The notes under the pieces are model-generated. The model had not been told where the DNA came from. It saw only the letters and a program-made list of their open reading frames with translations, and searched no databases. Both the position numbers and the translations under genes were made by a program. A DNA stretch of 43,570 nucleotides from a virus, in IMG/VR virus record IMGVR_UViG_3300013426_000010, positions 1-43,570 of that record. One strand, written 5' to 3'. This document shows positions 13,339 through 43,570 of this stretch, one piece after another (the stretch's first letter is position 1; each line of letters begins with the position of its first letter).

Positions 13339-13392
13339 CCACCTACCCCGAAGCATGATTTAATGCACCTACCCTTCGGGGGGGGTGGTTTT
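13339..13392 (+). terminator. Rho-independent terminator after the SSAP gene (contains a G8 run)
   Basis: CCACCTACCCCGAAG ... CTTCGGGGGGGGTGG followed by TTTT. Confidence 0.55.
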
Positions 13393-17426: not shown

Positions 17427-17556
17427 GAACATGAGAATCAAGGTTAAGTACTGCGACTATTCGGTTGTGGGGGGGTAATGACCCTAGACGTTAACGAGGA
17501 GGACTTGAAGGAAGCCCTTTCCTCAAAGTTGAACAAGATTAAAAACTGGTTTTAGT

Positions 17557-18345
17557 ATGCCAAGAAATAGAAGAAGGTTAGTTAAGAAAACTATGGAGCA
17601 GAACAACATCAATATCGCGGCAATCCTAGAAGGGATGCCAAAGGGCACAAAGTTGTATTCGCCGATGTGCGGCTTGTGCTTTCTAGACAAGGCAGAGACA
17701 TGCGAAGACCCGACGCAAGCAACGGTTGAGGTTTTTGATGCCTATAATGCAAGATACGCATTCGACAACTTCGGAAAGTACACCGATGAGGGCGAGGTAA
17801 TGCTTTTTCCTTCCAAGGAAATGAGAGACTGGCAGAAGTTTGCGGAGCAGATGAAGCCACGTTTCGAACTCGGCAAGTTGTATTTCTTTACTGAGGAAGA
17901 TGAGGACGGAGTGCTGAACATCATAGGTGAGTTGATTGGTAAGAACGAGGGCGAGGACACTTTGACCTTTGGCAACCAGCTGGAGATTGACGTTGAGAAT
18001 TTCGTGACTGACCAAGCCTTCGACCTTCGCATCAGCGCACACAAGGAGTTGAGAGAAGCAACCGAGGAGGAATGCCAGCATTTCAAGAACGCAAAGGAGC
18101 GTTGGAAGAACAGTTTCAAGGCGCACAAGTTCAAGACCTTCGAGGAGGTGCTTGTGCGAAACAATGATGAATGCAAGTGGTTTCCTGCCATCTTTGTTCG
18201 TGACCGTGGAAAGGAAACTGAATATCGGTATAATGTAGTAACCTTGCATAGCGGAAATGCTGGAGACTACGTCCAATGCATCCCTTACGAGAAGCATGAG
18301 CATCTAGCCTTCACTGCAGACCCCGAGGACACTCTTCCGTTCTAG
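17557..18345 (+). CDS. Hypothetical 262-aa protein
   Basis: Long ORF with no motif I recognise. An alternative start is MEQNN at 17593. Confidence 0.6.
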   Translation: MPRNRRRLVKKTMEQNNINIAAILEGMPKGTKLYSPMCGLCFLDKAETCEDPTQATVEVFDAYNARYAFDNFGKYTDEGEVMLFPSKEMRDWQKFAEQMKPRFELGKLYFFTEEDEDGVLNIIGELIGKNEGEDTLTFGNQLEIDVENFVTDQAFDLRISAHKELREATEEECQHFKNAKERWKNSFKAHKFKTFEEVLVRNNDECKWFPAIFVRDRGKETEYRYNVVTLHSGNAGDYVQCIPYEKHEHLAFTADPEDTLPF

Positions 18346-18368
18346 GTAAACAGAAATGTGGTTTTGGA

Positions 18369-18509
18369 ATGGCGAGCGAGATATGTAAGGCTTGCGGACT
18401 GGGGCGCAACTGCATAAACGGCAGGTGGTGCCCAGTCCGTGGGCAATATGTTGAACATTTGAAAATCAAGGAGTGCAATGACCGAGGAACAGAGAAGAAA
18501 GAAGCGTGA
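18369..18509 (+). CDS. Possible 46-aa Cys-rich peptide
   Basis: My translation: MASEICKACGLGRNCINGRWCPVRGQYVEHLKIKECNDRGTEKKEA. It overlaps the next ORF by 32 nt. Confidence 0.25.
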   Translation: MASEICKACGLGRNCINGRWCPVRGQYVEHLKIKECNDRGTEKKEA

Positions 18510-18831
18510 GTACATGCGCCAATATAGGGAGCGCAACCACGGAGAGTTGAAGGAGAAACTGAAGAAGGACTATTCGACCAGAGTGCGTAAGGACGGCATG
18601 ACGGTACAAGAGTACTATAAGAAGTACTACGTCCTTCATCGTGACCAGATAAGGCAGACCGCAAAGAGATGGAGGGAGCGCAACCCCGAGAAGGTCAAGG
18701 CTAACAACGCCCGAAACTACGCAAGGCGCAGGGCTGAGCGAATCGCCAGACAAGGAGGGGGAGAGATGCCTAACACCGACAAGGCGAAGGCTCTGTTCAA
18801 GAATCCTGCCATGGCGGCGCACTTCCAGTGA
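18478..18831 (+). CDS. Hypothetical highly basic protein with internal repeats
   Basis: 117 aa, with repeated R-x-Y-x-E-R-N-x-E-K-like segments (REYMRQYRERNHGELKEK and AKRWRERNPEKVKAN). Confidence 0.5.
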   Translation: MTEEQRRKKREYMRQYRERNHGELKEKLKKDYSTRVRKDGMTVQEYYKKYYVLHRDQIRQTAKRWRERNPEKVKANNARNYARRRAERIARQGGGEMPNTDKAKALFKNPAMAAHFQ

Positions 18832-19197
18832 CTCATTGACAAGGCGAAAGCCAGGAATGAAGAGAAATCCATTTGAATTAAGATAGACAACTAGAGTAAA
18901 CAACAAGCGAGGAACTAGAGAACGGCAGGCTGTAGATAACATGAAGTTTAACAACAAAATGGGTGCGGAAAGGCGCATCCGAGATACTAGATGTTTTGTT
19001 ATTCTAAACCGAGTGTGCTTTATTATTAATTTGACCCCACGGAAAGACGTGAGCCGATTCCTAGTCCGACTACAAGCCAAGAAAGCGAGGTGGTACATGA
19101 AGTAAGATTAAAACAAGCTAAGTGAAAATAACATCTTCATCTTTTCTCGGGGACGTGCAGGCAAAATGACGAAAATATTCTCGTTCGGTAAACTTCT

Positions 19198-19205
19198 TAT
19201 TTTTG
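19198..19205 (+). promoter_or_regulatory. Candidate -7 box TATTTTTG
   Basis: Matches TAnnTTTG, about 230 nt upstream of the resolvase ATG. No clear -33 box. Confidence 0.3.
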
Positions 19206-19432
19206 CAGGGCCGCACGTTCCCGATATTTTTGTTCCATCAAAAGGGCAAAACATGGAGAGGGGGATTATAGGGGGTGAGGTCGTAGGCGCATATAAGCGC
19301 ATGTGCGTGCGCAAAGCCATCGAGACCATAAACTATACCACCAACGAAAGAAAACCGCATGTGCGGCAAATTCGAGAAAAATAACTGTGCCAAAAAGAGC
19401 GAAAGAACAAAAAAGAATATAAAACAAGAGAC

Positions 19433-19981
19433 ATGAATCTGAAAGATAAAATCAAGATGGACGAAAACCAAAAGAGAGTTAAGCGTGAATTAATAATCGC
19501 CATCGACCCAGATAACAACGAGAGCGGAGTGGGAATGGTCTACACTGAGACCACGCAAGCCATGGCGGCAAAGATGAAGTTCCCGAAATTGATTGAGTAT
19601 CTGAGGGAGACCATCAGAACCAAGCCAAGAGGATATTTCAAGGTCGTAATCGAGGGCGGCTGGCTGAACGAATCCAACTGGCACATAAAGCAATCGTGCA
19701 GATACGTGAGAGACAAGGAAGCCCGAGCCGCGGCAATCGGACGTTCAACCGGTATGAATCACCAGACGGGCATCTTGATACAAGAGTACTGCGACTATCT
19801 AGGAATCGACTATTCGGTTGTTTATCCTTTGAAAAAGTGCTGGAAGGGCAAGGACGGAAAAATAACGCAGGACGAGATGAAACAGTTCATCCCGAACCTT
19901 CCAAGGATGAACCAAGACGAGCGTGACGCACTCCTGCTGGCGTGGGTCTACGCCGATTTGCCTATCAAGATGAAAGGATAA
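19433..19981 (+). CDS. RuvC-like Holliday junction resolvase
   Basis: LIIAIDPDNNESGVGMV (first catalytic Asp block) and NQDERDALLLAWV (terminal Asp block) fit the RuvC/RNase H-fold resolvase pattern. Confidence 0.65.
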   Translation: MNLKDKIKMDENQKRVKRELIIAIDPDNNESGVGMVYTETTQAMAAKMKFPKLIEYLRETIRTKPRGYFKVVIEGGWLNESNWHIKQSCRYVRDKEARAAAIGRSTGMNHQTGILIQEYCDYLGIDYSVVYPLKKCWKGKDGKITQDEMKQFIPNLPRMNQDERDALLLAWVYADLPIKMKG

Positions 19982-20030
19982 ATTACGTTAAAAATAACCG
20001 CAAACGCAAACAAAGTGAACCGAAAAGTCG

Positions 20031-20038
20031 TACCTTTG
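20031..20038 (+). promoter_or_regulatory. Candidate -7 box TACCTTTG
   Basis: Matches TAnnTTTG, 62 nt upstream of the ParB-like ATG. Confidence 0.35.
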
Positions 20039-20099
20039 TGCGTGTTCCGTGAACAAGTGTTCTTCGGACATATAGAAACTAAGCAAAAAATCGAAAGAT

Positions 20100-20984
20100 A
20101 TGCAGACGGAAGAAATCGCACTCTCTCGGTTGTCTGAGAACAAGGAGAACCCGAGAACCATAACAACGGAGAAGTTCCAGAAGTTGGTTAAGTCGCTTCT
20201 GGTCTTTCCTCGTATGCTGACCCTTCGCCCGATAGTCGTTGATAACACGATGAAGGTGCTGGGCGGCAATATGCGCCTAAAGGCTTTGAAGCACATCGTG
20301 AGCATGGACAAGGACACATTGCGCCTTACCATTGCCAACGATGAAACCAACAAGTTCACGGAAGGCGAGGTGCAGAACTTGGTGGGCTACTGGATGGACT
20401 GGCGGAAGAAACCAGTGGCGACAATCATCAACGCCAACGACCTAACCGAGAGCCAAAAGCGTGAGTTCATCATCAAGGACAACGTGGGCTTCGGAGACTG
20501 GGACACAAACATGCTGGCGAACGAGTGGGATGCCGATGTGCTCAAAGACTGGGGCATGGAGGAATGGCAACTTGAAGGGACCGCACCCGATGAGGACAAA
20601 GAAGGAGAGGACGACGATAACTCGGAGAACAACTATGAGAGAAAGATAGTCGCACCTATCTACGAGCCGCAGGACGGAGAGGTTTCTTTGTCAGAATGCT
20701 ATGATACCACCAAGACGGACGCATTGATTTCTGCGATTGATGCTTCGGATCTAGACGAGCAAACAAAAACTTTCTTGAAGGTGGCCGCATATCGACACGC
20801 CAAGTTCAACTACGAGAGGGTTGCGGACTTCTATGCCAAGGCACCGAAGGAGGTACAGGAACTGATGGAGGACTCTGCACTCGTTATTGTGGACTTCAAC
20901 AAAGCCATCGAGGACGGTTTCGTCAAGATTAGCAAGGATTTCATGGAACAATACGGAAAGGAGCACGGAAATGACGCAGGATGA
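20100..20984 (+). CDS. ParB N-terminal (ParB/sulfiredoxin-like nuclease) domain protein with acidic linker and helical C-terminal domain
   Basis: IALSRLSENKENPRTITTEKFQKLVKSLLVFPRMLTLRPIVVDNTMKVLGGNMRLKAL matches the ParBc pattern (L..NP.NPR.i....l..L..Si......PivV.....vi.GN.Rl.A). Confidence 0.7.
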   Translation: MQTEEIALSRLSENKENPRTITTEKFQKLVKSLLVFPRMLTLRPIVVDNTMKVLGGNMRLKALKHIVSMDKDTLRLTIANDETNKFTEGEVQNLVGYWMDWRKKPVATIINANDLTESQKREFIIKDNVGFGDWDTNMLANEWDADVLKDWGMEEWQLEGTAPDEDKEGEDDDNSENNYERKIVAPIYEPQDGEVSLSECYDTTKTDALISAIDASDLDEQTKTFLKVAAYRHAKFNYERVADFYAKAPKEVQELMEDSALVIVDFNKAIEDGFVKISKDFMEQYGKEHGNDAG

Positions 20985-21843
20985 ATTTAGAGAGAATTTT
21001 GTCGCCTTCATCCTAACGCACGGAAGGGCTGACAACGTAATGACATACAAGACCGCCCGAAAGGCTGGCTACACTGGCCGTATCGTGCTGGTTCTTGATG
21101 ATGAGGACGAACAACGAGAGCAATACTTCGCCATCTACGGAAAGGAAAATTGCTACGTGTTCAACAAGCAAAGGTACGTGGAGAGTACCGACAACATCAT
21201 GAAGGGAAGCAGGGGAGTGATAGTTTACGCCAGGAACGCTTGTTTCGACATCGCTGAGGAATTGGGCTACAAGTACTTTATCGAGCTAGACGATGATTAT
21301 TACGAGTTCTCATGGAAGTTCGATGAGCGAGGGAGATTCAAGCAAAGGCACATTCTAGATTTAAACTTCGTTTGGCGCAGGATGCTGGAATACTTTCTTT
21401 CGTGTCCGTTCACTACGCTAGCCATGGCACAATGCGGCGACTTTGTGGGGGGGCGAGAAAACCAGATGGCTAGAACCATCGGGACAAAGCGAAAGGCGAT
21501 GAACTCATTCATTTGCTCTACAGATAGAAGGTTTCAGTTTGTTGGACGCATCAATGAAGACGTGAATACGTACATATGGCTATCGACACAAGGAAAAATC
21601 TTTCTTACGTTGGCGCAGGTCGTTCTGAACCAAGAAATGACCCAGACCAACAAGGGAGGAATGAGCGAGGCATATTGGGGAGAGGGTACGTTTCAAAAAT
21701 CCTTTTCATCCGTGATAGTTTGCCCGAGCGCAGTTAAAATGGGAATGATGGGGAACATCAACAGACGTTTGCACCACAACGTTCAATGGAAATGCGTAAC
21801 GCCCATGATAGTTTCGGAGAAATGGAAAAAGGCAGGAGATTAA
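20971..21843 (+). CDS. GT-A-fold-like glycosyltransferase candidate (DxD motif), function unknown
   Basis: The start is taken at ATG 20971 (MTQDEF), overlapping the ParB-like stop by 14 nt. VAFILTHGRADN (beta1-like), YFIELDDDYYEF (DxD) and FVGRINEDVNTY (ED) are arranged as in GT-A folds. Contains a G7 run at 21447-21453. Confidence 0.45.
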   Translation: MTQDEFRENFVAFILTHGRADNVMTYKTARKAGYTGRIVLVLDDEDEQREQYFAIYGKENCYVFNKQRYVESTDNIMKGSRGVIVYARNACFDIAEELGYKYFIELDDDYYEFSWKFDERGRFKQRHILDLNFVWRRMLEYFLSCPFTTLAMAQCGDFVGGRENQMARTIGTKRKAMNSFICSTDRRFQFVGRINEDVNTYIWLSTQGKIFLTLAQVVLNQEMTQTNKGGMSEAYWGEGTFQKSFSSVIVCPSAVKMGMMGNINRRLHHNVQWKCVTPMIVSEKWKKAGD

Positions 21844-21851
21844 CCCCTGCC
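21831..21851. terminator. Hairpin whose loop contains the two overlapping convergent stop codons (bidirectional terminator candidate)
   Basis: GGCAGGagattaaccCCTGCC. The + gene stop TAA is at 21841-21843 and the - gene stop is at 21840-21842. The minus strand continues with a T-rich run. Confidence 0.45.
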
Positions 21852-22034
21852 GATTGCTTTCAAAATGCACTGGTTGATGAAGTCGCTGCGGTCTTTCTTG
21901 TCTAGACTGTCCAGATAGTCCGCTACTTCTTGGACCGCCCCGAAATAGAAGGTGCTGGCGTACTTCTTTGTTCGTCCCGCACCCTTTCGGGCACCGCCCC
22001 AGTTGGTCTTAGATGATTCTTTTTCTGTGCTCAT
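21840..22034 (-). CDS. Ribbon-helix-helix-like small DNA-binding protein (paralogue of 6835..6993)
   Basis: WGGARKGAGRTKKYASTFYFGAVQEVADYLDSLDKKDRSDFINQCILKAI aligns with KKGGGRTLKYMNIGIDADLLPVLDKVDNKTRFINQAIREY. Confidence 0.5.
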   Translation of the reverse strand: MSTEKESSKTNWGGARKGAGRTKKYASTFYFGAVQEVADYLDSLDKKDRSDFINQCILKAIGRG

Positions 22035-22061
22035 AACGTTAAAAATTTGGTTGTATGAAAA

Positions 22062-22077
22062 TAAATTTGTAAATTTG
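22062..22077 (+). promoter_or_regulatory. Tandem -7 boxes TAAATTTG TAAATTTG
   Basis: Two abutting TAnnTTTG matches, about 290 nt upstream of the small terminase gene. Confidence 0.35.
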
Positions 22078-22264
22078 CAAACGAAATGCCAAAGTGAGGG
22101 TTGCGGTAGTGCTAGTACCGTTCCCCTCTTGAAAAATCAAAACTCTTTCTAGAGTTCAACCGTTAAGGTTATTTTGATTTTCCAAATCCGAATTGAAATG
22201 TAGGTTCTCATTTGGACTTTGGTATTTCATTTTCCCTACTCTCTTGGAGGTTTTCGGAATCCCC

Positions 22265-22291
22265 TTTGTAATCTCTCATTGATTACGTTTG
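22265..22291 (+). promoter_or_regulatory. Candidate late promoter (-33 TTTG 22265-22268, -7 TACGTTTG 22284-22291)
   Basis: Consensus words are present but the spacing is 15 nt, shorter than usual. It lies 75 nt upstream of terS. Confidence 0.35.
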
Positions 22292-22366
22292 CAAAGATAC
22301 AAAAAATATTTGAATTAACCAAACTTTTCAAGATGAAATTTTATAAAATATCAAAATAATTCAAAT

Positions 22367-22984
22367 ATGCCAAGAGGTAACAACAATTTGAGGAAAGAGC
22401 AACATTGTGCCAAGGAGCAAAGGCTAGAGATTGTCGCGCCCCTTTGGCGCAAGAACTACAATTATCGGGAGATTCGAGCCGAGGTAATGAAGCGACTTGG
22501 ATTGCCTTCTTATTCCTTGCAAACCGTGAAGCGTGATGTTGATACCCTGCTTAAGGAATGGCAGGAAAACCGACTGGGCGACACGGAGAAAAAGATAACT
22601 TCCGAACTGGCACGCATCGACCTCGTAATCAAGGAAGCGTGGGAAATGTGGGAAAAGTCAAAGGAAGACTACGAGAAACGTAAGTCGAAGCAAAAGGGCA
22701 AGCCGAAGACCGACAAACAAGGTGTGCAGATAGGTGTAACGACCACGTACCAAGAGATGCAGAACGAGGAATACCGAGCCAAGGGTGATGCCCGATACTT
22801 GGACATCATCATCCGTTGCATCGAGCGTAGGTGCAAGTTGCTTGGGCTGGATAAGGAGACCATCGACTTGAATACTCAGATAGAGGACGGCAAGTTAGAA
22901 ATCGTCTACGTCAGCAACGGAGGTGTCGGCATCTCCCATTCCGAGGAGGAAGTACGCAAGCGTGAGGGGCTGGCGGATATATAA
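22367..22984 (+). CDS. terS: Terminase small subunit (inferred)
   Basis: 205 aa, immediately upstream of terL, with an N-terminal HTH-like segment (NYNYREIRAEVMKRLGLPSYSLQTVKRDV) followed by a charged coiled coil. Confidence 0.6.
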   Translation: MPRGNNNLRKEQHCAKEQRLEIVAPLWRKNYNYREIRAEVMKRLGLPSYSLQTVKRDVDTLLKEWQENRLGDTEKKITSELARIDLVIKEAWEMWEKSKEDYEKRKSKQKGKPKTDKQGVQIGVTTTYQEMQNEEYRAKGDARYLDIIIRCIERRCKLLGLDKETIDLNTQIEDGKLEIVYVSNGGVGISHSEEEVRKREGLADI

Positions 22985-23045
22985 ATTCATGAACTGATTT
23001 TCTTTTATCATATTTCTGTTTAGTTTTAGTTAGATTGAAAGAGCG

Positions 23046-24221
23046 ATGGCATTATTCGAGGTACTTGATTTGTTTCGTGAGAACGCAGACAAAAAGCCTA
23101 GGTTTCTTGTTAACCAAGGCGGAACGTCTTCGGGCAAGACGTATACAATCATGCAGCTTTTGATAGTGTTGTCGCTCAATCATCCTCGGGCTATCATTAC
23201 GGTGGTTGGTCAGGATTTGCCTAACTTGAAGGTGGGCGCATTGCGAGATATGCAAACTATTCTGAACGGAAACAAGTGGCTAAAGGGTACGTTTCGGGAA
23301 AATAGGAGCGACCATTATTTCCGAGCGTCCAACGGCTCAATCATTGAGTTCAAGACCTATGGGGATGCGCAGGACGCAAAGAACGGTAAGCGTGACTGGC
23401 TTTTCATCAACGAGGCGAACGGCGTGCCTTACGACATCTTTTGGCAGCTTCAAATCCGAACCAGAGAACAAATCTTCATCGACTACAACCCAACTGCACG
23501 ATTTTGGGTGCATGACCAGATTATCGGAAGGGCGGATTGCAAGTTGATTCTCTCGGATCATCGGGCTAACAAGTTTTTAACAAAGGAGCAACATTTAAGA
23601 ATCGAGGAAATCGAGGACAGAGAACTGTGGGCGGTTTATGCCCGAGGGTTGACTGGAAAGCTGACTGGGTTAGTCTTCCGTGACTGGGGAATTGTTGATT
23701 CCCTTCCGCCTAGGGAGGATTGGAAAATGAGCTGCCGAGGATTGGACTTCGGATTTACCAACGACCCTAGCGCACTGGAGCATGTTGTCTTGGCTCATGG
23801 CGAGTTGTGGGTTGACGAGGAAATCTATGAGGTGGGCATGACGAACCCCGACATTGCAAGGAGGTGCAAGCAGAAGGGAGTGACAAAGGGCGACATGATT
23901 GTTGCGGACTGCGCTGAGCCGAAATCCATACAAGAGATACACAACGAGGGCTTGTATATCGTTCCCAGCACAAAGGGAGCGGATTCCATCAACAACGGAA
24001 TCGACATCTTGAAGCGTTACCGCATCAACATAACAAGGCGTTCGAAAGGCATCATCGGAAACATGCAGTCGTACAAATGGATTGTTGACCGGGATGGAAA
24101 GACCACCAACAAGCCGATAGACGCATTCAATCATGGCATAGACGCAATAAGATACGTTGCCCTTAAGAAGTTCACCATCGAGCACAGGGGAACGGCTAGG
24201 GCGAAGATAATGAGGACTTAA
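23046..24221 (+). CDS. terL: Terminase large subunit (PBSX/Terminase_3-like)
   Basis: Walker A NQGGTSSGKTYTIMQ, Walker B-like DWLFINEANG, and a C-terminal nuclease region with DFGFTNDPSAL and FNHGIDAIRYV. Confidence 0.9.
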   Translation: MALFEVLDLFRENADKKPRFLVNQGGTSSGKTYTIMQLLIVLSLNHPRAIITVVGQDLPNLKVGALRDMQTILNGNKWLKGTFRENRSDHYFRASNGSIIEFKTYGDAQDAKNGKRDWLFINEANGVPYDIFWQLQIRTREQIFIDYNPTARFWVHDQIIGRADCKLILSDHRANKFLTKEQHLRIEEIEDRELWAVYARGLTGKLTGLVFRDWGIVDSLPPREDWKMSCRGLDFGFTNDPSALEHVVLAHGELWVDEEIYEVGMTNPDIARRCKQKGVTKGDMIVADCAEPKSIQEIHNEGLYIVPSTKGADSINNGIDILKRYRINITRRSKGIIGNMQSYKWIVDRDGKTTNKPIDAFNHGIDAIRYVALKKFTIEHRGTARAKIMRT

Positions 24222-24236
24222 CAAAGGTATTCGAGT

Positions 24237-24785
24237 ATGGATAAAAATATTAAATTCAAAGATTGGCTAGTGCTGGCTCAGTTGGCTGGCTTCAAGATTG
24301 AGAAGTGCAGCCGCCCTTCCTTTGTCGGCAAGCATGAGACCCCGAGAGACCTGCAAGGGCTGACGCTAGGGCAATTAATCTCGCTATCTGAACTTGATGG
24401 CACGAACGAAAGCATCTACACCATTTGCGAAACGATTCTGAGGATGGAGCGCAAGGAGGTGGAGAAAGCCCGAGCCGTTGACGTGGTCCGCTTCGTAGGC
24501 TGGGTGTCGAGGGAGGTTGACAAGATAAACAAACTTTTCGATAGGGCCGCAATCAACAAGCCAACGCAACAAGAGAAGCAAGCAGGGGTGGAAACCTTGA
24601 ACTTCGGGCTTTTTGGGATGTTGGATTGGTTTGCTCAACGCATGAGGATTCAAGACCACGACCAAGTATTGAAAATTCCGTGGCTCAGAATATACAAGTG
24701 CATTGACATGGACAACAAGAAACGTGCCTACGAGATTCGCTTGGCGAAACTGAGGGCTGCGGAAATGAAGAGAAACCAAAGATAA
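24237..24785 (+). CDS. Hypothetical structural-module protein
   Basis: 182-aa ORF, 15 nt after terL. Confidence 0.5.
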   Translation: MDKNIKFKDWLVLAQLAGFKIEKCSRPSFVGKHETPRDLQGLTLGQLISLSELDGTNESIYTICETILRMERKEVEKARAVDVVRFVGWVSREVDKINKLFDRAAINKPTQQEKQAGVETLNFGLFGMLDWFAQRMRIQDHDQVLKIPWLRIYKCIDMDNKKRAYEIRLAKLRAAEMKRNQR

Positions 24786-41700: not shown

Positions 41701-43570
41701 CCCTTTGATTGATGGATATACCGATTACTCCAGTGGCACGGCTCAGACCGTGAAGACTGGTGCGTTTCTCTATGCCCTTCAAGGTAGTCGAGACGCACAT
41801 CGCCGTTGGTGGCTTTACAACCGCTTCAAGTATATGGATTCCAAGTTCCAAGCTGGTTCTTCTTTGTCTGATTACATAACGTTTCGTACCTATACCCCTG
41901 CGGAATGGTCGGGGGTTGAGCCAAAGGCAGACATTACAATCGGTTCCCTTGCCGCCATGTATGGTACAATCAAATGGGGAAGTATCACCAAGAGCGAAAG
42001 AATGAGCGAGGGAGAGGTTAAGACCATCACTGCGCCTACGGACACGAAGTTTAACGACACCGAGACCATCATCTACAATGCTTCAATGATTAAGAGCATT
42101 GGCGATTTGTCGGCTCTGTATGTGGGTACCGTGGACGTGTCAAAGGCTACGAACATAACTGAGTTAATCATCGGTTCATCGGTCAGCGGCTACAAGAACC
42201 AGAATTTTAGCGTTCTTTCCCTTGGTAACAATGCCAAGTTGTGCAAGCTGGATATTCAGAATTGCCCGAACTATACCGCTAGTATTGATGTGAGCGGTTG
42301 CGAGAACATCGAGGAGGTTTATGCGAGGGGTACTGGTGCAACCGCCGTTAACCTTGCAGAGGGTGGCGTGTTGCGTGTCTTGCAACTTCCTGCGAGCATC
42401 ACGAACCTTACATTGAAGAACCAGCCGAAACTCGGAACTGGCTTAACTTTGGAATCATGGGCGAACGTGGTTGCGTTGGTTATTGAGAATTGCCCAAACA
42501 TCAATGCTTTTGCAAGGGTTAAAACTATTCTTGCAGATACGAATGCGCTTCAACGTGTCCGAATCACCAACGTAAAGGCGAATGAAAGCAACTTTGCAAT
42601 ATTGGAGCAACTTAAGAATCTTAAGGGAATCGGCGACAATGGCGAGTATACCGACTTTGCCTATATTAGTGGTACATATAACATTGCGGAGGCTGGAGAG
42701 AGCGACATCGAGGAATATACAAAGCTATTCCCTTACCTTAAGATAGTGGCAGGAAAAGTCTTGAAGATGCACACGGTTACTTTCGTTGTTAAGTCTCAGT
42801 ATGGCAATATCAAGGGTGCTACCGTAACTATCAACGGTTCAACATATAGCCTATCAAGTGGTACGGCTAGCGTTAAGTTGTTGGAAGGCAAAAGCTACAG
42901 TTATACTATTAATTACGATGGCAAGACTGATAGCGGAAGCGTCTCAGTTGGTTCTTCTGATGTAACTATCAATAAGACATACACGGTATCTTTCGATGCC
43001 ATGAGCATGAAGCCAGAGCCGAATGGAAAGATTCAATTCCTGCTTGGTGGTAAGAATGTTAGTTTCGGCATCACTGGAGGATACACCGATTTGAGTATTG
43101 ACTGGGGGGATGATTCGGCATCCATTGATGGTGATGAATTTAGCCACACTTATGCGGACGGAGAGCAATTTCATAATGTTTCCGTGCAAGTCACTGGAGG
43201 AACAAAAATATATTTTGACAATCAATGTATCTATGCGTTTTGGAGTATTGGAAATAATGAGAATATAGTTCCAGATTTTGAAACTCAAGGCAAATTACAA
43301 TACGTTGGTCTTGATGCGTTGAAGAATTTTACTGGCACTTCATTAAAAAATGAATTCTACAATTGCTCTAGCTTGAAGGAGATACCAGCTGGCTTGTTCG
43401 ACAACTGCACTAAGGTAACTAGTTTATATTGTTGCTTCTATGGATGCTCTAGCTTGAAGGAGATACCAGCTGGCTTGTTCGACAACTGCACTAAGGTAAC
43501 TAGTTTATATTGTTGCTTCTATGGATGCTCTAGCTTGAAGGAGATACCAGCTGGCTTGTTCGACAACTGC
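38714..43570 (+). CDS. Giant receptor-binding/tail-fibre protein, 3'-partial in the window (continues at 1..618; about 1755 aa if the 207-nt overlap is collapsed): LamG-like, CotH-like, LRR, Ig/PKD-like and BspA-LRR segments
   Basis: I translated from ATG 38714 by eye and met no stop up to 43570 (4857 nt, exactly 1619 codons). The ORF is absent from the supplied track, apparently because it has no in-window stop. Motifs are listed in the findings. Confidence 0.85.
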   Translation, partial: MTKVYDGKIDLSTDWGGDSSTGNLPVAGGRVQELIKSTFAKKGGYVQVKDKKFLQIFADEASAKKYNSDSDKYADLLISQVQLPNTGATQATMKVSVLSIPSEYSTKGRSEVFSFRYNSYYENEEDFSQVSGSCVVYVNNVQRERISLRAGNTYTIDVSKYLTDGTNEVKFTIDNAEQSKRNYVYEVQMVNLKVVSDFDYIAAYNGDIPFTYTPIGNILKTVHIVMDGEEIHSEETEVNNRQLSFEIPAQSHGAHTLEVYLTATIQDIALESERLKYSVICIEEGNETPIIASNMERVEMNQYESVNIPFVVYAPLNNPAEITLRINKSVVATRQVDRTQQTWIYKALEVGGGMMEIKCRDVSKSLPLTVNESIITSKAETQNLELFLTSQGRSNQDANKETWENNGIKVAFEGMNYTTNGWVVDSDGNTAMRLSGGATMEIPLLLFSKDIRQTGKTIELEFAVRQVTDYTSVVLSCLQGGIGLELTPNTIMLTSEQSSMETKYKEDERVRVSFVIEKRANNRLMQIYINGIKSQSVQYPDNDGFMQASPVGITANSDAATLDIYNIRVYSNNLKSQQLLDNYIADLDDIEKKMAIFKRNQVYDTYGNLSYNALLEQIPCLTITGELSQYKGDKKTVSIEYVDKNHPDKSFTADGVVLNVQGTSSQYYPRKNYKGQFKKGFDMTESGQHEDAFTLDEDAVLPAVNFCWKADFAESSGTHNTGLANYIGWMLKQAGILTEPQKKNALIRTTVYGEPCLIFHRASAGETPQFIGKYNFNTDKSAENTFGFADGDESWEFSNNTSDRSLFRSADFDGDAWKNDFEGRYPDGNEDISHMKEVFAWVVSCKDDLEKFKNEFDEHFDKKTLIFYYLITLVFGMVDQRAKNQFLTYYSGGKWLFIFYDNDTVFGINNEGAIEFSYNIEIHDVIGNLNAYNGANSLLWELVEQAFAGDIKSLYQDLRQKGILSYDNVIKYCNTRQSDKWCEAVYNEDGYYKYESPLIDGYTDYSSGTAQTVKTGAFLYALQGSRDAHRRWWLYNRFKYMDSKFQAGSSLSDYITFRTYTPAEWSGVEPKADITIGSLAAMYGTIKWGSITKSERMSEGEVKTITAPTDTKFNDTETIIYNASMIKSIGDLSALYVGTVDVSKATNITELIIGSSVSGYKNQNFSVLSLGNNAKLCKLDIQNCPNYTASIDVSGCENIEEVYARGTGATAVNLAEGGVLRVLQLPASITNLTLKNQPKLGTGLTLESWANVVALVIENCPNINAFARVKTILADTNALQRVRITNVKANESNFAILEQLKNLKGIGDNGEYTDFAYISGTYNIAEAGESDIEEYTKLFPYLKIVAGKVLKMHTVTFVVKSQYGNIKGATVTINGSTYSLSSGTASVKLLEGKSYSYTINYDGKTDSGSVSVGSSDVTINKTYTVSFDAMSMKPEPNGKIQFLLGGKNVSFGITGGYTDLSIDWGDDSASIDGDEFSHTYADGEQFHNVSVQVTGGTKIYFDNQCIYAFWSIGNNENIVPDFETQGKLQYVGLDALKNFTGTSLKNEFYNCSSLKEIPAGLFDNCTKVTSLYCCFYGCSSLKEIPAGLFDNCTKVTSLYCCFYGCSSLKEIPAGLFDNC
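43364..43570 (+). repeat. Perfect 81-bp tandem repeat (43364-43444, 43445-43525, 43526-43570), identical to 1..207
   Basis: Direct comparison of both window ends. Confidence 0.95.

Follow-up and report, generated by a model that had tools for sequence, protein, structure and literature searches.

Among the characterized members of the TET-associated glycosyltransferase (TAGT) family are the T2/T6 enzyme, which attaches a second glucose to glucosyl-5-hydroxymethylcytosine (glucosyl-5hmC), and the TET-cluster enzymes, which act on 5hmC. The T6 TAGT, the TET-cluster glycosyltransferases and the trypanosome base-J glucosyltransferase (JGT) all glycosylate modified DNA bases. Solitary TAGTs have been flagged as unexplained in one survey, where they accounted for 288 of 753 glycosyltransferase-bearing phages, and in another, where they made up ~65% of the mined glycosyltransferase contigs. 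A link between ParB and DNA-modification systems was reportedly first drawn in a comparative-genomics paper of 2013. [quoted passage not shown] Here, we describe a pair of overlapping genes, ORF A and ORF B (ORF, open reading frame), which join a ParB-like protein to a TAGT in IMG/VR virus record IMGVR_UViG_3300013426_000010; the whole stretch analysed (43,570 nt) is referred to as the window.

The pair is an uncharacterized variant of known phage DNA-modification modules, and not a new family. We favour, with a probability of roughly 0.55, the reading that ORF A and ORF B constitute a self-contained cassette for ParB-guided DNA glycosylation, acting late and beside the packaging genes, on an acceptor that we leave unspecified. 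The features on which this reading rests are listed below by window position (CTD, C-terminal domain; pLDDT, predicted local distance difference test score).

20100–20984, + strand: ORF A, 294 aa; ParB/Srx-fold N-domain, acidic linker and CTD; predicted adaptor or activator of the glycosyltransferase
20100–20576, + strand: ParB/Srx-fold N-domain, aa 1–159; NPR at aa 17–19, GGNMR at aa 55–59, helical insert of ~40–45 aa (about aa 64–105)
20577–20660, + strand: acidic, predicted disordered linker, aa 160–187; pLDDT <50 for residues 160–187
20631–20669, + strand: linear motif NYERKIVAPIYEP, aa 178–190; consensus Y-[ST]-x-K-[IV]-x-x-P-x-Y-E-P; opens the partner module
20661–20981, + strand: CTD, aa 188–294; helical, without a Pfam model; strictly conserved partner of this TAGT subfamily
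20971–20984, + strand: ORF A/ORF B overlap of 14 nt, ATGACGCAGGATGA
20971–21843, + strand: ORF B, 290 aa; TAGT-family GT-A glycosyltransferase
21289–21297, + strand: DDD (aa 107–109), the metal- and nucleotide-sugar-binding DxD motif of ORF B; invariant; part of R...DDD...ED
20579–21816, + strand: exchangeable cassette of linker, CTD and nearly all of the TAGT; homology to the sister phage L097 at 18337–20578 and 21817–24500, none between

A preliminary description of the window had recognized a GT-A-like layout in the conserved blocks of ORF B, and this assignment was borne out. Each computational check suggested in that description gave a positive outcome, and none of the computational results named there as refuting was obtained. 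ORF B matched the Pfam TAGT family (PF20691) over residues 13–230 with 116.1 bits against a cut-off of 27.5 (E 2.7e-33), and matched PHROG 842 at 6.9e-64. More than 7700 homologues were present in a large protein collection, and PF20691 was found in all of the 120 matches listed. Foldseek searches with the AlphaFold model of ORF B gave 81 PDB matches at E<=1e-3, all with the nucleotide-diphospho-sugar transferase fold (GT-A type), for example COLGALT1 and SpsA. The peptide blocks quoted in that description were all located in the two translations, at aa 16–21 (ENPRTI) and 53–63 (VLGGNMRLKAL) of ORF A, and at aa 11–22 (VAFILTHGRADN), 104–113 (IELDDDYYEF) and 192–198 (GRINEDV) of ORF B. The three ORF B blocks proved to be the catalytic motifs: R19, D107–D109 and D197 were invariant in the homologue alignment, and are the counterparts of the R...DDD...ED active-site motifs described for JGT and for the GT-A glycosyltransferases with which phages modify DNA. 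Neither ORF A nor ORF B found a match in profile searches against PDB sequences or in an NCBIfam search. A nucleotide search of GenBank phages returned only a short match to haloarchaeal virus HHTV-2, and a protein-mode search was then used.

The start of ORF B was placed at ATG 20971; the longest mechanical ORF would begin at TTG 20887. The 290-aa product (beginning MTQ) is backed by homologue alignments and by independent gene calls on public contigs with an identical protein. ORF A does end 14 nt inside this frame, as had been claimed, and in nearly all related loci the partner and TAGT genes overlap by 4–68 nt, an arrangement that may couple the translation of ORF B to that of ORF A.

ORF B shares PF20691, the GT-A fold and the R...DDD...ED motifs with JGT and with the TET/JBP-associated TAGTs of C5-methyltransferase/5mYOX clusters, and the phage-cluster TAGTs are, like ORF B, also encoded near ParB-like and terminase genes. 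The TET/JBP-associated enzymes use 5hmC or 5-hydroxymethyluracil (5hmU) from a neighbouring dioxygenase, whereas no dioxygenase, thymidylate-synthase homologue or C5-methyltransferase was found in the window genome; ORF B is, in addition, locked to a CTD-bearing partner, unlike those TAGTs. The T2/T6 beta-glucosyl-HMC-alpha-glucosyltransferase belongs to the same family, as PHROG 842 bears its name and PF20691 covers both proteins, but the T6 enzyme needs a dCMP hydroxymethylase and an alpha-glucosyltransferase pathway, none of which is present in the window genome. The glycosyltransferase domain of the animal protein GREB1 is also homologous to ORF B, although GREB1 is a 1949-aa cytoplasmic protein that acts on a transcription factor and has no ParB or CTD partner.

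An orthologous pair is carried by Escherichia coli Rac-type prophages, where ynaK (annotated 'ParB/Srx family N-terminal domain-containing protein') accompanies a 'GREB1-related protein'; the TAGT is 49% identical to ORF B and the CTD matches at E 1e-42. The two E. coli genes overlap and lie upstream of terminase, as ORF A and ORF B do, and were present in 1580 of 5426 complete E. coli genomes. The pair differs from that of the window in belonging to a different host phylum and in a ParB N-domain without the helical insert of ORF A. Our literature search found no functional study of the ynaK/'GREB1-related protein' pair.

The strictly conserved partner of the TAGT is the CTD of ORF A and not its ParB domain, a point that the preliminary description had missed. 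Profiles of the ParB N-domain, the CTD (aa 178–290) and the TAGT were scanned over related loci, and the viral sets comprised the best-matching 80 loci of each scan. Starting from the TAGT, a CTD-bearing ORF stood directly upstream, mostly overlapping the TAGT start, in essentially all 80 IMG/VR loci (TAGT 48–95% identical to that of the window). The same CTD-bearing ORF was upstream in 18/18 genome loci (Prevotella, Bacteroides, Muribaculaceae, Lachnospiraceae, Thiotrichales and Candidatus Enterousia) and in 6/6 annotated phages (Salmonella SPF_0923, Lactobacillus c5, Lactobacillus PMBT4, haloarchaeal virus HHTV-2, a Porphyromonas phage and a 191-kb Vibrio phage). Taken together, the loci reached from the TAGT side gave a count of 104/104 for this neighbourhood. 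Starting from the CTD, a same-strand TAGT was found downstream in 80/80 viral loci and was directly adjacent in 78. The pairing, which held in all relatives examined save decayed copies, is far beyond chance. The exceptions carry an in-frame deletion that fuses the start of ORF A to TAGT residue 76; at L005:9039–9785 and L006:2030–2776, the first ~40 residues of ORF A are joined to that residue, giving a 248-aa hybrid without the THGR motif that is probably a decayed copy.

An exhaustive search of representative clusters placed the CTD family at 1202 clusters, and the CTD was C-terminal in 148 of the 150 listed. A Pfam scan of 16 CTD members gave no match to the CTD, the helices of which were modelled in ORF A with pLDDT 74–95 over about aa 190–260. 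Between bacterial and archaeal virus partners, the CTD aligned at E about 1e-40 and the ParB domain at 1e-4 to 1e-7. In the linear motif that precedes the CTD, Y179, P186 and Y188 were invariant and K182 nearly so amongst bacterial and archaeal virus homologues. Since the CTD is the better conserved of the two domains and CTD-only partners exist, we consider the conserved unit to be the Y-x-x-K-x-x-x-P-x-Y-E-P motif, the helical CTD and the TAGT, with the ParB domain frequent and dispensable.

The pair's neighbours are either terminase genes or PolA and a sliding clamp. At L112:2970–5117 and L117:5309–9965, a CTD-only partner (134 aa) and a TAGT have the gene of a family A DNA polymerase on one side and that of a sliding-clamp homologue on the other, and in L112 two TAGT paralogues flank the CTD gene. 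In the two CTD-derived loci without direct adjacency, genes are inserted between the CTD protein and the TAGT: a CofD-like + HAD protein and a MobA/CofC-like nucleotidyltransferase at L181:2646–6043, and a histidine-phosphatase + cytidylyltransferase protein at L169:680–3237. The resemblance of these inserted genes to donor-synthesis genes suggests that some variants use unusual activated donors. In one protein (P0379, 449 aa), a further domain with the P-loop GGSCAGKS lies C-terminal to the ParB N-domain and CTD; kinases of the P-loop type are known from pathways of thymidine hypermodification. The ParB–CTD partner of Lactobacillus phage PMBT4 (L124:2729–3502) is named 'adenine-specific methyltransferase' in GenBank, yet has no methyltransferase domain, and the name was probably carried over from ParB–methyltransferase fusions.

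The ParB/Srx-fold N-terminal domain attributed to ORF A was likewise upheld by profile and structure searches. The AlphaFold model of ORF A consists of a folded N-domain (residues 1–159), a disordered acidic linker (160–187) and the helical CTD. PHROG ParB families 620/498/940 matched ORF A over its whole length at 2e-26. ORF A itself had no Pfam match at E<=1, probably because of its ~40–45-aa insert; more distant orthologous partners, which have no such helical insert, scored 23–29 bits against Pfam ParB_N (PF02195), the cut-off of which is 26.3. The top 25 PDB matches of the model in Foldseek were all ParB, Noc, KorB, PadC or pNOB8 ParB, with sulfiredoxin lower; probabilities were mostly 0.8–1.0, and the E-values were weak (4e-3 to 0.4). 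Against the BFVD viral models, 30 matches were obtained at E<=1e-3, and most of the named ones were ParB/Sulfiredoxin. We also considered whether partners without a ParB hidden Markov model match carry a different N-domain, and rejected this on the basis of a profile–profile homology probability of 98.8%.

In the homologue alignment, N17, R19 and R59 of ORF A were invariant and S32 nearly so. By motif comparison with the CTPase residues of partition ParB (Q-x-R and GERR), ORF A keeps the arginines (R19 and R59), but the hydrolysis positions are N17 and N57 and not Q and E. The central helix-turn-helix domain of partition ParB is absent from ORF A, where the N-domain is followed by the disordered linker and then by the CTD, which has no Pfam match. 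ORF A shares the layout of the 5mYOX ParB activators, namely an N-domain, a disordered linker and a C-terminal domain without an obvious DNA-binding domain, beside the gene of its client (14-nt overlap). The residues mutated in the ParB activator (N14/R16/S29/R56) stand at a constant offset of +3 to N17/R19/S32/R59 of ORF A, a correspondence by numbering and not by alignment. The clients differ: the 5mYOX activators serve a dioxygenase, whereas the client of ORF A is a glycosyltransferase, and no TET_JBP protein was found in the window.

Related phages carry a poly-G tract in the linker of their ORF A homologues: G7 at L001:9622 and L003:9622, and G6 at L004:1589, L101:6496 and L102:1826. G7 keeps the ParB domain and CTD in one frame (309–311 aa), and G6 puts the ParB domain out of frame with the motif and CTD. 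Phase variation, a fixed frameshift and sequencing error in the homopolymer are all possible sources of this G6/G7 difference. The counterpart region of the window (about 20595–20610) contains no such tract.

The slot occupied by the pair holds other enzymes in related phages. The first 160–170 residues of ORF A are 75–89% identical to the N-termini of 445–515-aa proteins with an N6/N4 DNA methyltransferase domain, and these ParB-N::N6/N4 methyltransferase fusions occupy the same slot in sister phages. In L097, a near-identical sister phage with the same gene order, the slot is filled by a 501-aa ParB-N::N6_N4_Mtase protein, the ParB-N of which is 89% identical to that of ORF A; in relative P0175, the methyltransferase domain was PF01555 at 31.9 bits against 26.7. 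In these fusions the catalytic domain is part of the ParB-like protein, whereas ORF A, in which residues 160–294 comprise only linker and CTD and no methyltransferase domain, would recruit a separate glycosyltransferase via the CTD. DNA homology to L097 stops at window position 20578, at the end of the ParB domain, and restarts at 21817, which indicates that linker, CTD and TAGT have been swapped for a fused methyltransferase domain between sister phages.

A third cassette was found in the same slot upstream of the terminase genes (L099:6001–8315 and L100:2708–5022). Its products are a 232-aa protein with a ParB N-domain, a GNAT acetyltransferase of 129 aa encoded by an overlapping gene, and a radical SAM enzyme of 412 aa with weak similarity to the PA0069/Rv2578c family; the set is a candidate for another DNA modification system. 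The slot is a variable locus at which different enzymes are preceded by one ParB N-domain, and of these enzymes at least one certainly acts on DNA; this is the strongest argument that we have for a DNA-acting glycosyltransferase.

The source of the window is a temperate phage of gut Bacteroidota, with genes for an integrase, a YqaJ/RecE-type exonuclease and a DnaD-like replication protein. An exact 207-nt direct repeat at its termini (1–207 and 43364–43570) suggests that the genome is complete and circularly permuted. The repeat sits within an array of 81-nt periodicity in a BspA-type leucine-rich-repeat gene (ORF 10–618), and is consistent with a circular assembly broken inside a repetitive tail or host-recognition gene. 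ORF A is preceded by a resolvase-like gene (19433–19981, phrog_1770); downstream of the pair are the large terminase gene (23046–24221) and, beyond it, the tail genes. The pair had been placed between the recombination genes and the terminase, and these flanks agree with that position. ORF A and ORF B are late genes within the replication-to-packaging operon, away from the attachment site.

The preliminary description had also reported that methyltransferase, hydroxymethylase and TET-like genes are missing, and this holds across the apparently complete genome. A Pfam scan of all 62 ORFs >=90 aa found no TET/JBP (PF12851), thymidylate-synthase-like protein, C5 or N6 methyltransferase, or second glycosyltransferase. 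The upstream gene content is the same in the methyltransferase-carrying sister phage, and hence nothing outside the cassette co-varies with it. An unannotated 262-aa ORF (17557–18345) was considered as a hidden precursor gene and rejected: it has homologues in sister phages with other cassettes, and therefore does not co-vary with the glycosyltransferase. TET/JBP was not amongst the families that recurred in 117 neighbouring proteins from 20 diverse loci; those that did were terminases, DNA methyltransferases, polymerase and clamp. Lactobacillus and Enterobacteria phages of 31–38 kb and an archaeal virus of 53 kb carry the pair as well. Because the cassette is found on its own in such small bacterial and archaeal phage genomes, an acceptor without a phage-made hydroxymethyl base is somewhat likelier than the classical one.

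Under the favoured reading of a ParB-guided DNA glycosylation cassette, the pair would be expressed with, or just ahead of, the packaging genes. ORF B would be the catalyst, drawing on a nucleotide sugar as donor through its DxD site, and ORF A the adaptor, with the linker motif and CTD predicted to dock ORF B physically. The ParB/Srx N-domain would engage DNA, in the manner of the ParB-like proteins that activate phage thymine dioxygenases or of the N-domain fused to DNA methyltransferases. The putative outcome is sugar-decorated phage DNA that resists host restriction, giving the pair an anti-restriction role.

Several observations weigh against this reading. That DNA is the substrate of this TAGT subfamily is something we infer, and GREB1, the animal member of the family, is a protein O-GlcNAc transferase. 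To our knowledge, all characterized TAGTs transfer sugar to a hydroxyl group, whether on 5hmC, on 5hmU, on a sugar or, in the case of GREB1, on Ser/Thr, and the bases of unmodified DNA have no such group. In a sister group of partners, the N-domain is still ParB-like but has lost both conserved (phosphate-binding) arginines, and CTD-only partners of 133–152 aa have no ParB domain at all; ParB-type NTP chemistry therefore cannot be essential. The co-occurrence sets describe one subfamily only (44–95% identity). The structural models also limit the argument: that of ORF A is of only moderate confidence (pLDDT 70.5), and that of ORF B (pLDDT 62.8) is confident for residues 1–150 only, with the C-terminal third poorly modelled.

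A bolder form of the favoured reading, tentative and less probable than that reading itself, is that ordinary DNA without hydroxymethylated bases is glycosylated directly, for example at an exocyclic nitrogen or the backbone, by a two-protein enzyme consisting of the CTD protein and a TAGT of this subfamily, with the ParB N-domain as an optional DNA loader. Amongst the rival accounts, protein glycosylation is, in our judgement, unlikely: the TAGT would modify its own partner, for instance a Tyr of Y-x-x-K...P-x-Y-E-P (compare glycogenin), or a phage or host protein, as GREB1 does. The precedent of GREB1 as a protein transferase of the same family, the invariant Tyr-containing linear motif in a disordered stretch of the partner, the partners without a ParB domain and the absence of any enzyme for a hydroxylated DNA base from the 62-ORF Pfam scan all point in that direction, but in the sister phage the slot is taken by a DNA methyltransferase with this ParB N-domain fused to it, the pair adjoins PolA/clamp or terminase genes, and ParB-like partners are documented activators of DNA-modifying enzymes. 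Somewhat less likely again is classical TAGT chemistry on 5hmC or 5hmU supplied by an unrecognized, highly divergent hydroxylase or hydroxymethylase of phage or host. The DNA-acting members characterized to date all use a hydroxymethyl-pyrimidine, or a sugar attached to one, the literature notes 5mYOX-like contigs in their thousands that have no TET/JBP Pfam annotation, and several ORFs of the window are unannotated. Set against this are the 62 ORFs without a TET_JBP, thymidylate-synthase-like or C5-methyltransferase match, the sameness of the upstream genes in the sister phage, where nothing beyond the cassette co-varies, the occurrence of the pair alone in the 31–38 kb Lactobacillus and Enterobacteria phages and the 53 kb archaeal virus, and the fact that TET_JBP was not recurrent in the neighbourhoods of the 20 loci.

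Two further accounts appear very improbable to us. ORF B could be a prophage 'moron' that alters host lipopolysaccharide, teichoic acid or capsule against other phages, with the ParB-like gene merely adjacent. Changes of this kind are made by prophage GT-A enzymes such as TarP, to which related phage GT-A enzymes have their top PDB match, and the window phage is temperate, with an integrase; yet ORF B lies in the replication-to-packaging operon and not by the attachment site, overlaps and strictly co-occurs with the CTD protein, and belongs to a pair found in large Vibrio phages and a haloarchaeal virus, which face very different envelopes, and no membrane segment or lipid-carrier partner was seen. 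We give as little credence to the idea that the genes are unrelated neighbours, the ParB-like protein serving partition or packaging (as a 'ParB-like nuclease' aiding terminase) independently of the glycosyltransferase. It would fit the position of the pair directly upstream of the terminase genes, or right after cos in Lactobacillus phage c5, and the database labels 'partition protein' and 'nuclease'. It is at odds with a co-occurrence that is complete both ways, with the overlap of the reading frames, and with the CTD, and not the ParB domain, being the conserved element, as the CTD-only partners illustrate. A whole-window Pfam scan found no partition ATPase (ParA-type) family, although parS-like or centromere repeats were not searched for.

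Four further features of the locus had been pointed out previously or flank the pair:

20031–20038, + strand: candidate −7 promoter box TACCTTTG, a match to the Bacteroidota-type TAnnTTTG, in the 118-nt gap upstream of ORF A
21447–21453, + strand: G7 tract; codons GTG GGG GGG (Val-Gly-Gly), of which Gly-Gly is invariant
21831–21851, no strand assigned: hairpin GGCAGGAGATTAACCCCTGCC of 8 pairs, 6 of them G-C, spanning both convergent stop codons
21840–22034, − strand: convergent 64-aa gene with the motif GGARKGAGR, conserved beside all three cassette types

The box reported at 20031 fits TAnnTTTG, a pattern that is enriched in the window (49 against 27.5 +/- 6 expected), and is a candidate promoter for the pair. 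The G7 tract within ORF B is present as stated, but the proposal that it is an on/off switch was not supported. Of the homologous copies, only the five that match the window exactly had G7, and the 86 others had runs of G2–G5; we rejected a phase switch, as the tract is a by-product of codon choice, absent from relatives and invariant in five independent copies. Further G-runs occur in the early region, at 13378–13385 (G8) and 17469–17475 (G7). The hairpin said to be shared with a convergent ribbon–helix–helix (RHH) gene does lie over both stop codons; it is followed by a T-run on the minus strand only, and is terminator-like for the minus-strand gene. The RHH label of that gene was not confirmed: a Pfam search gave no match, and NCBIfam gave only a weak MazE-like match (E 0.0025, 18 bits against a cut-off of 65). 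This 64-aa minus-strand gene stands inside a rightward operon, and is not considered part of the cassette because it is retained beside the methyltransferase variant.

Solitary TAGTs are an open problem in the literature, which the present analysis makes tractable by defining a strictly conserved partner domain for which databases hold no model. The interchangeability of the pair with a ParB-fused DNA methyltransferase at one genomic slot represents a natural swap experiment, no precursor-making enzyme was seen to travel with the pair, and tractable carriers are available in E. coli ynaK-type prophages, Lactobacillus phage c5 and Salmonella phage SPF_0923. Should DNA prove to be the target, the pair would give phages a new way of making sugar-modified genomes, with relevance to restriction evasion, phage therapy and DNA-labelling enzymes, and the activator role of ParB-like proteins would extend from dioxygenases to glycosyltransferases. 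If ordinary DNA is glycosylated directly, this would be an undescribed DNA modification chemistry, present in about a quarter of E. coli genomes and carried also by phages of gut Bacteroidota, lactobacilli, vibrios and haloarchaea.

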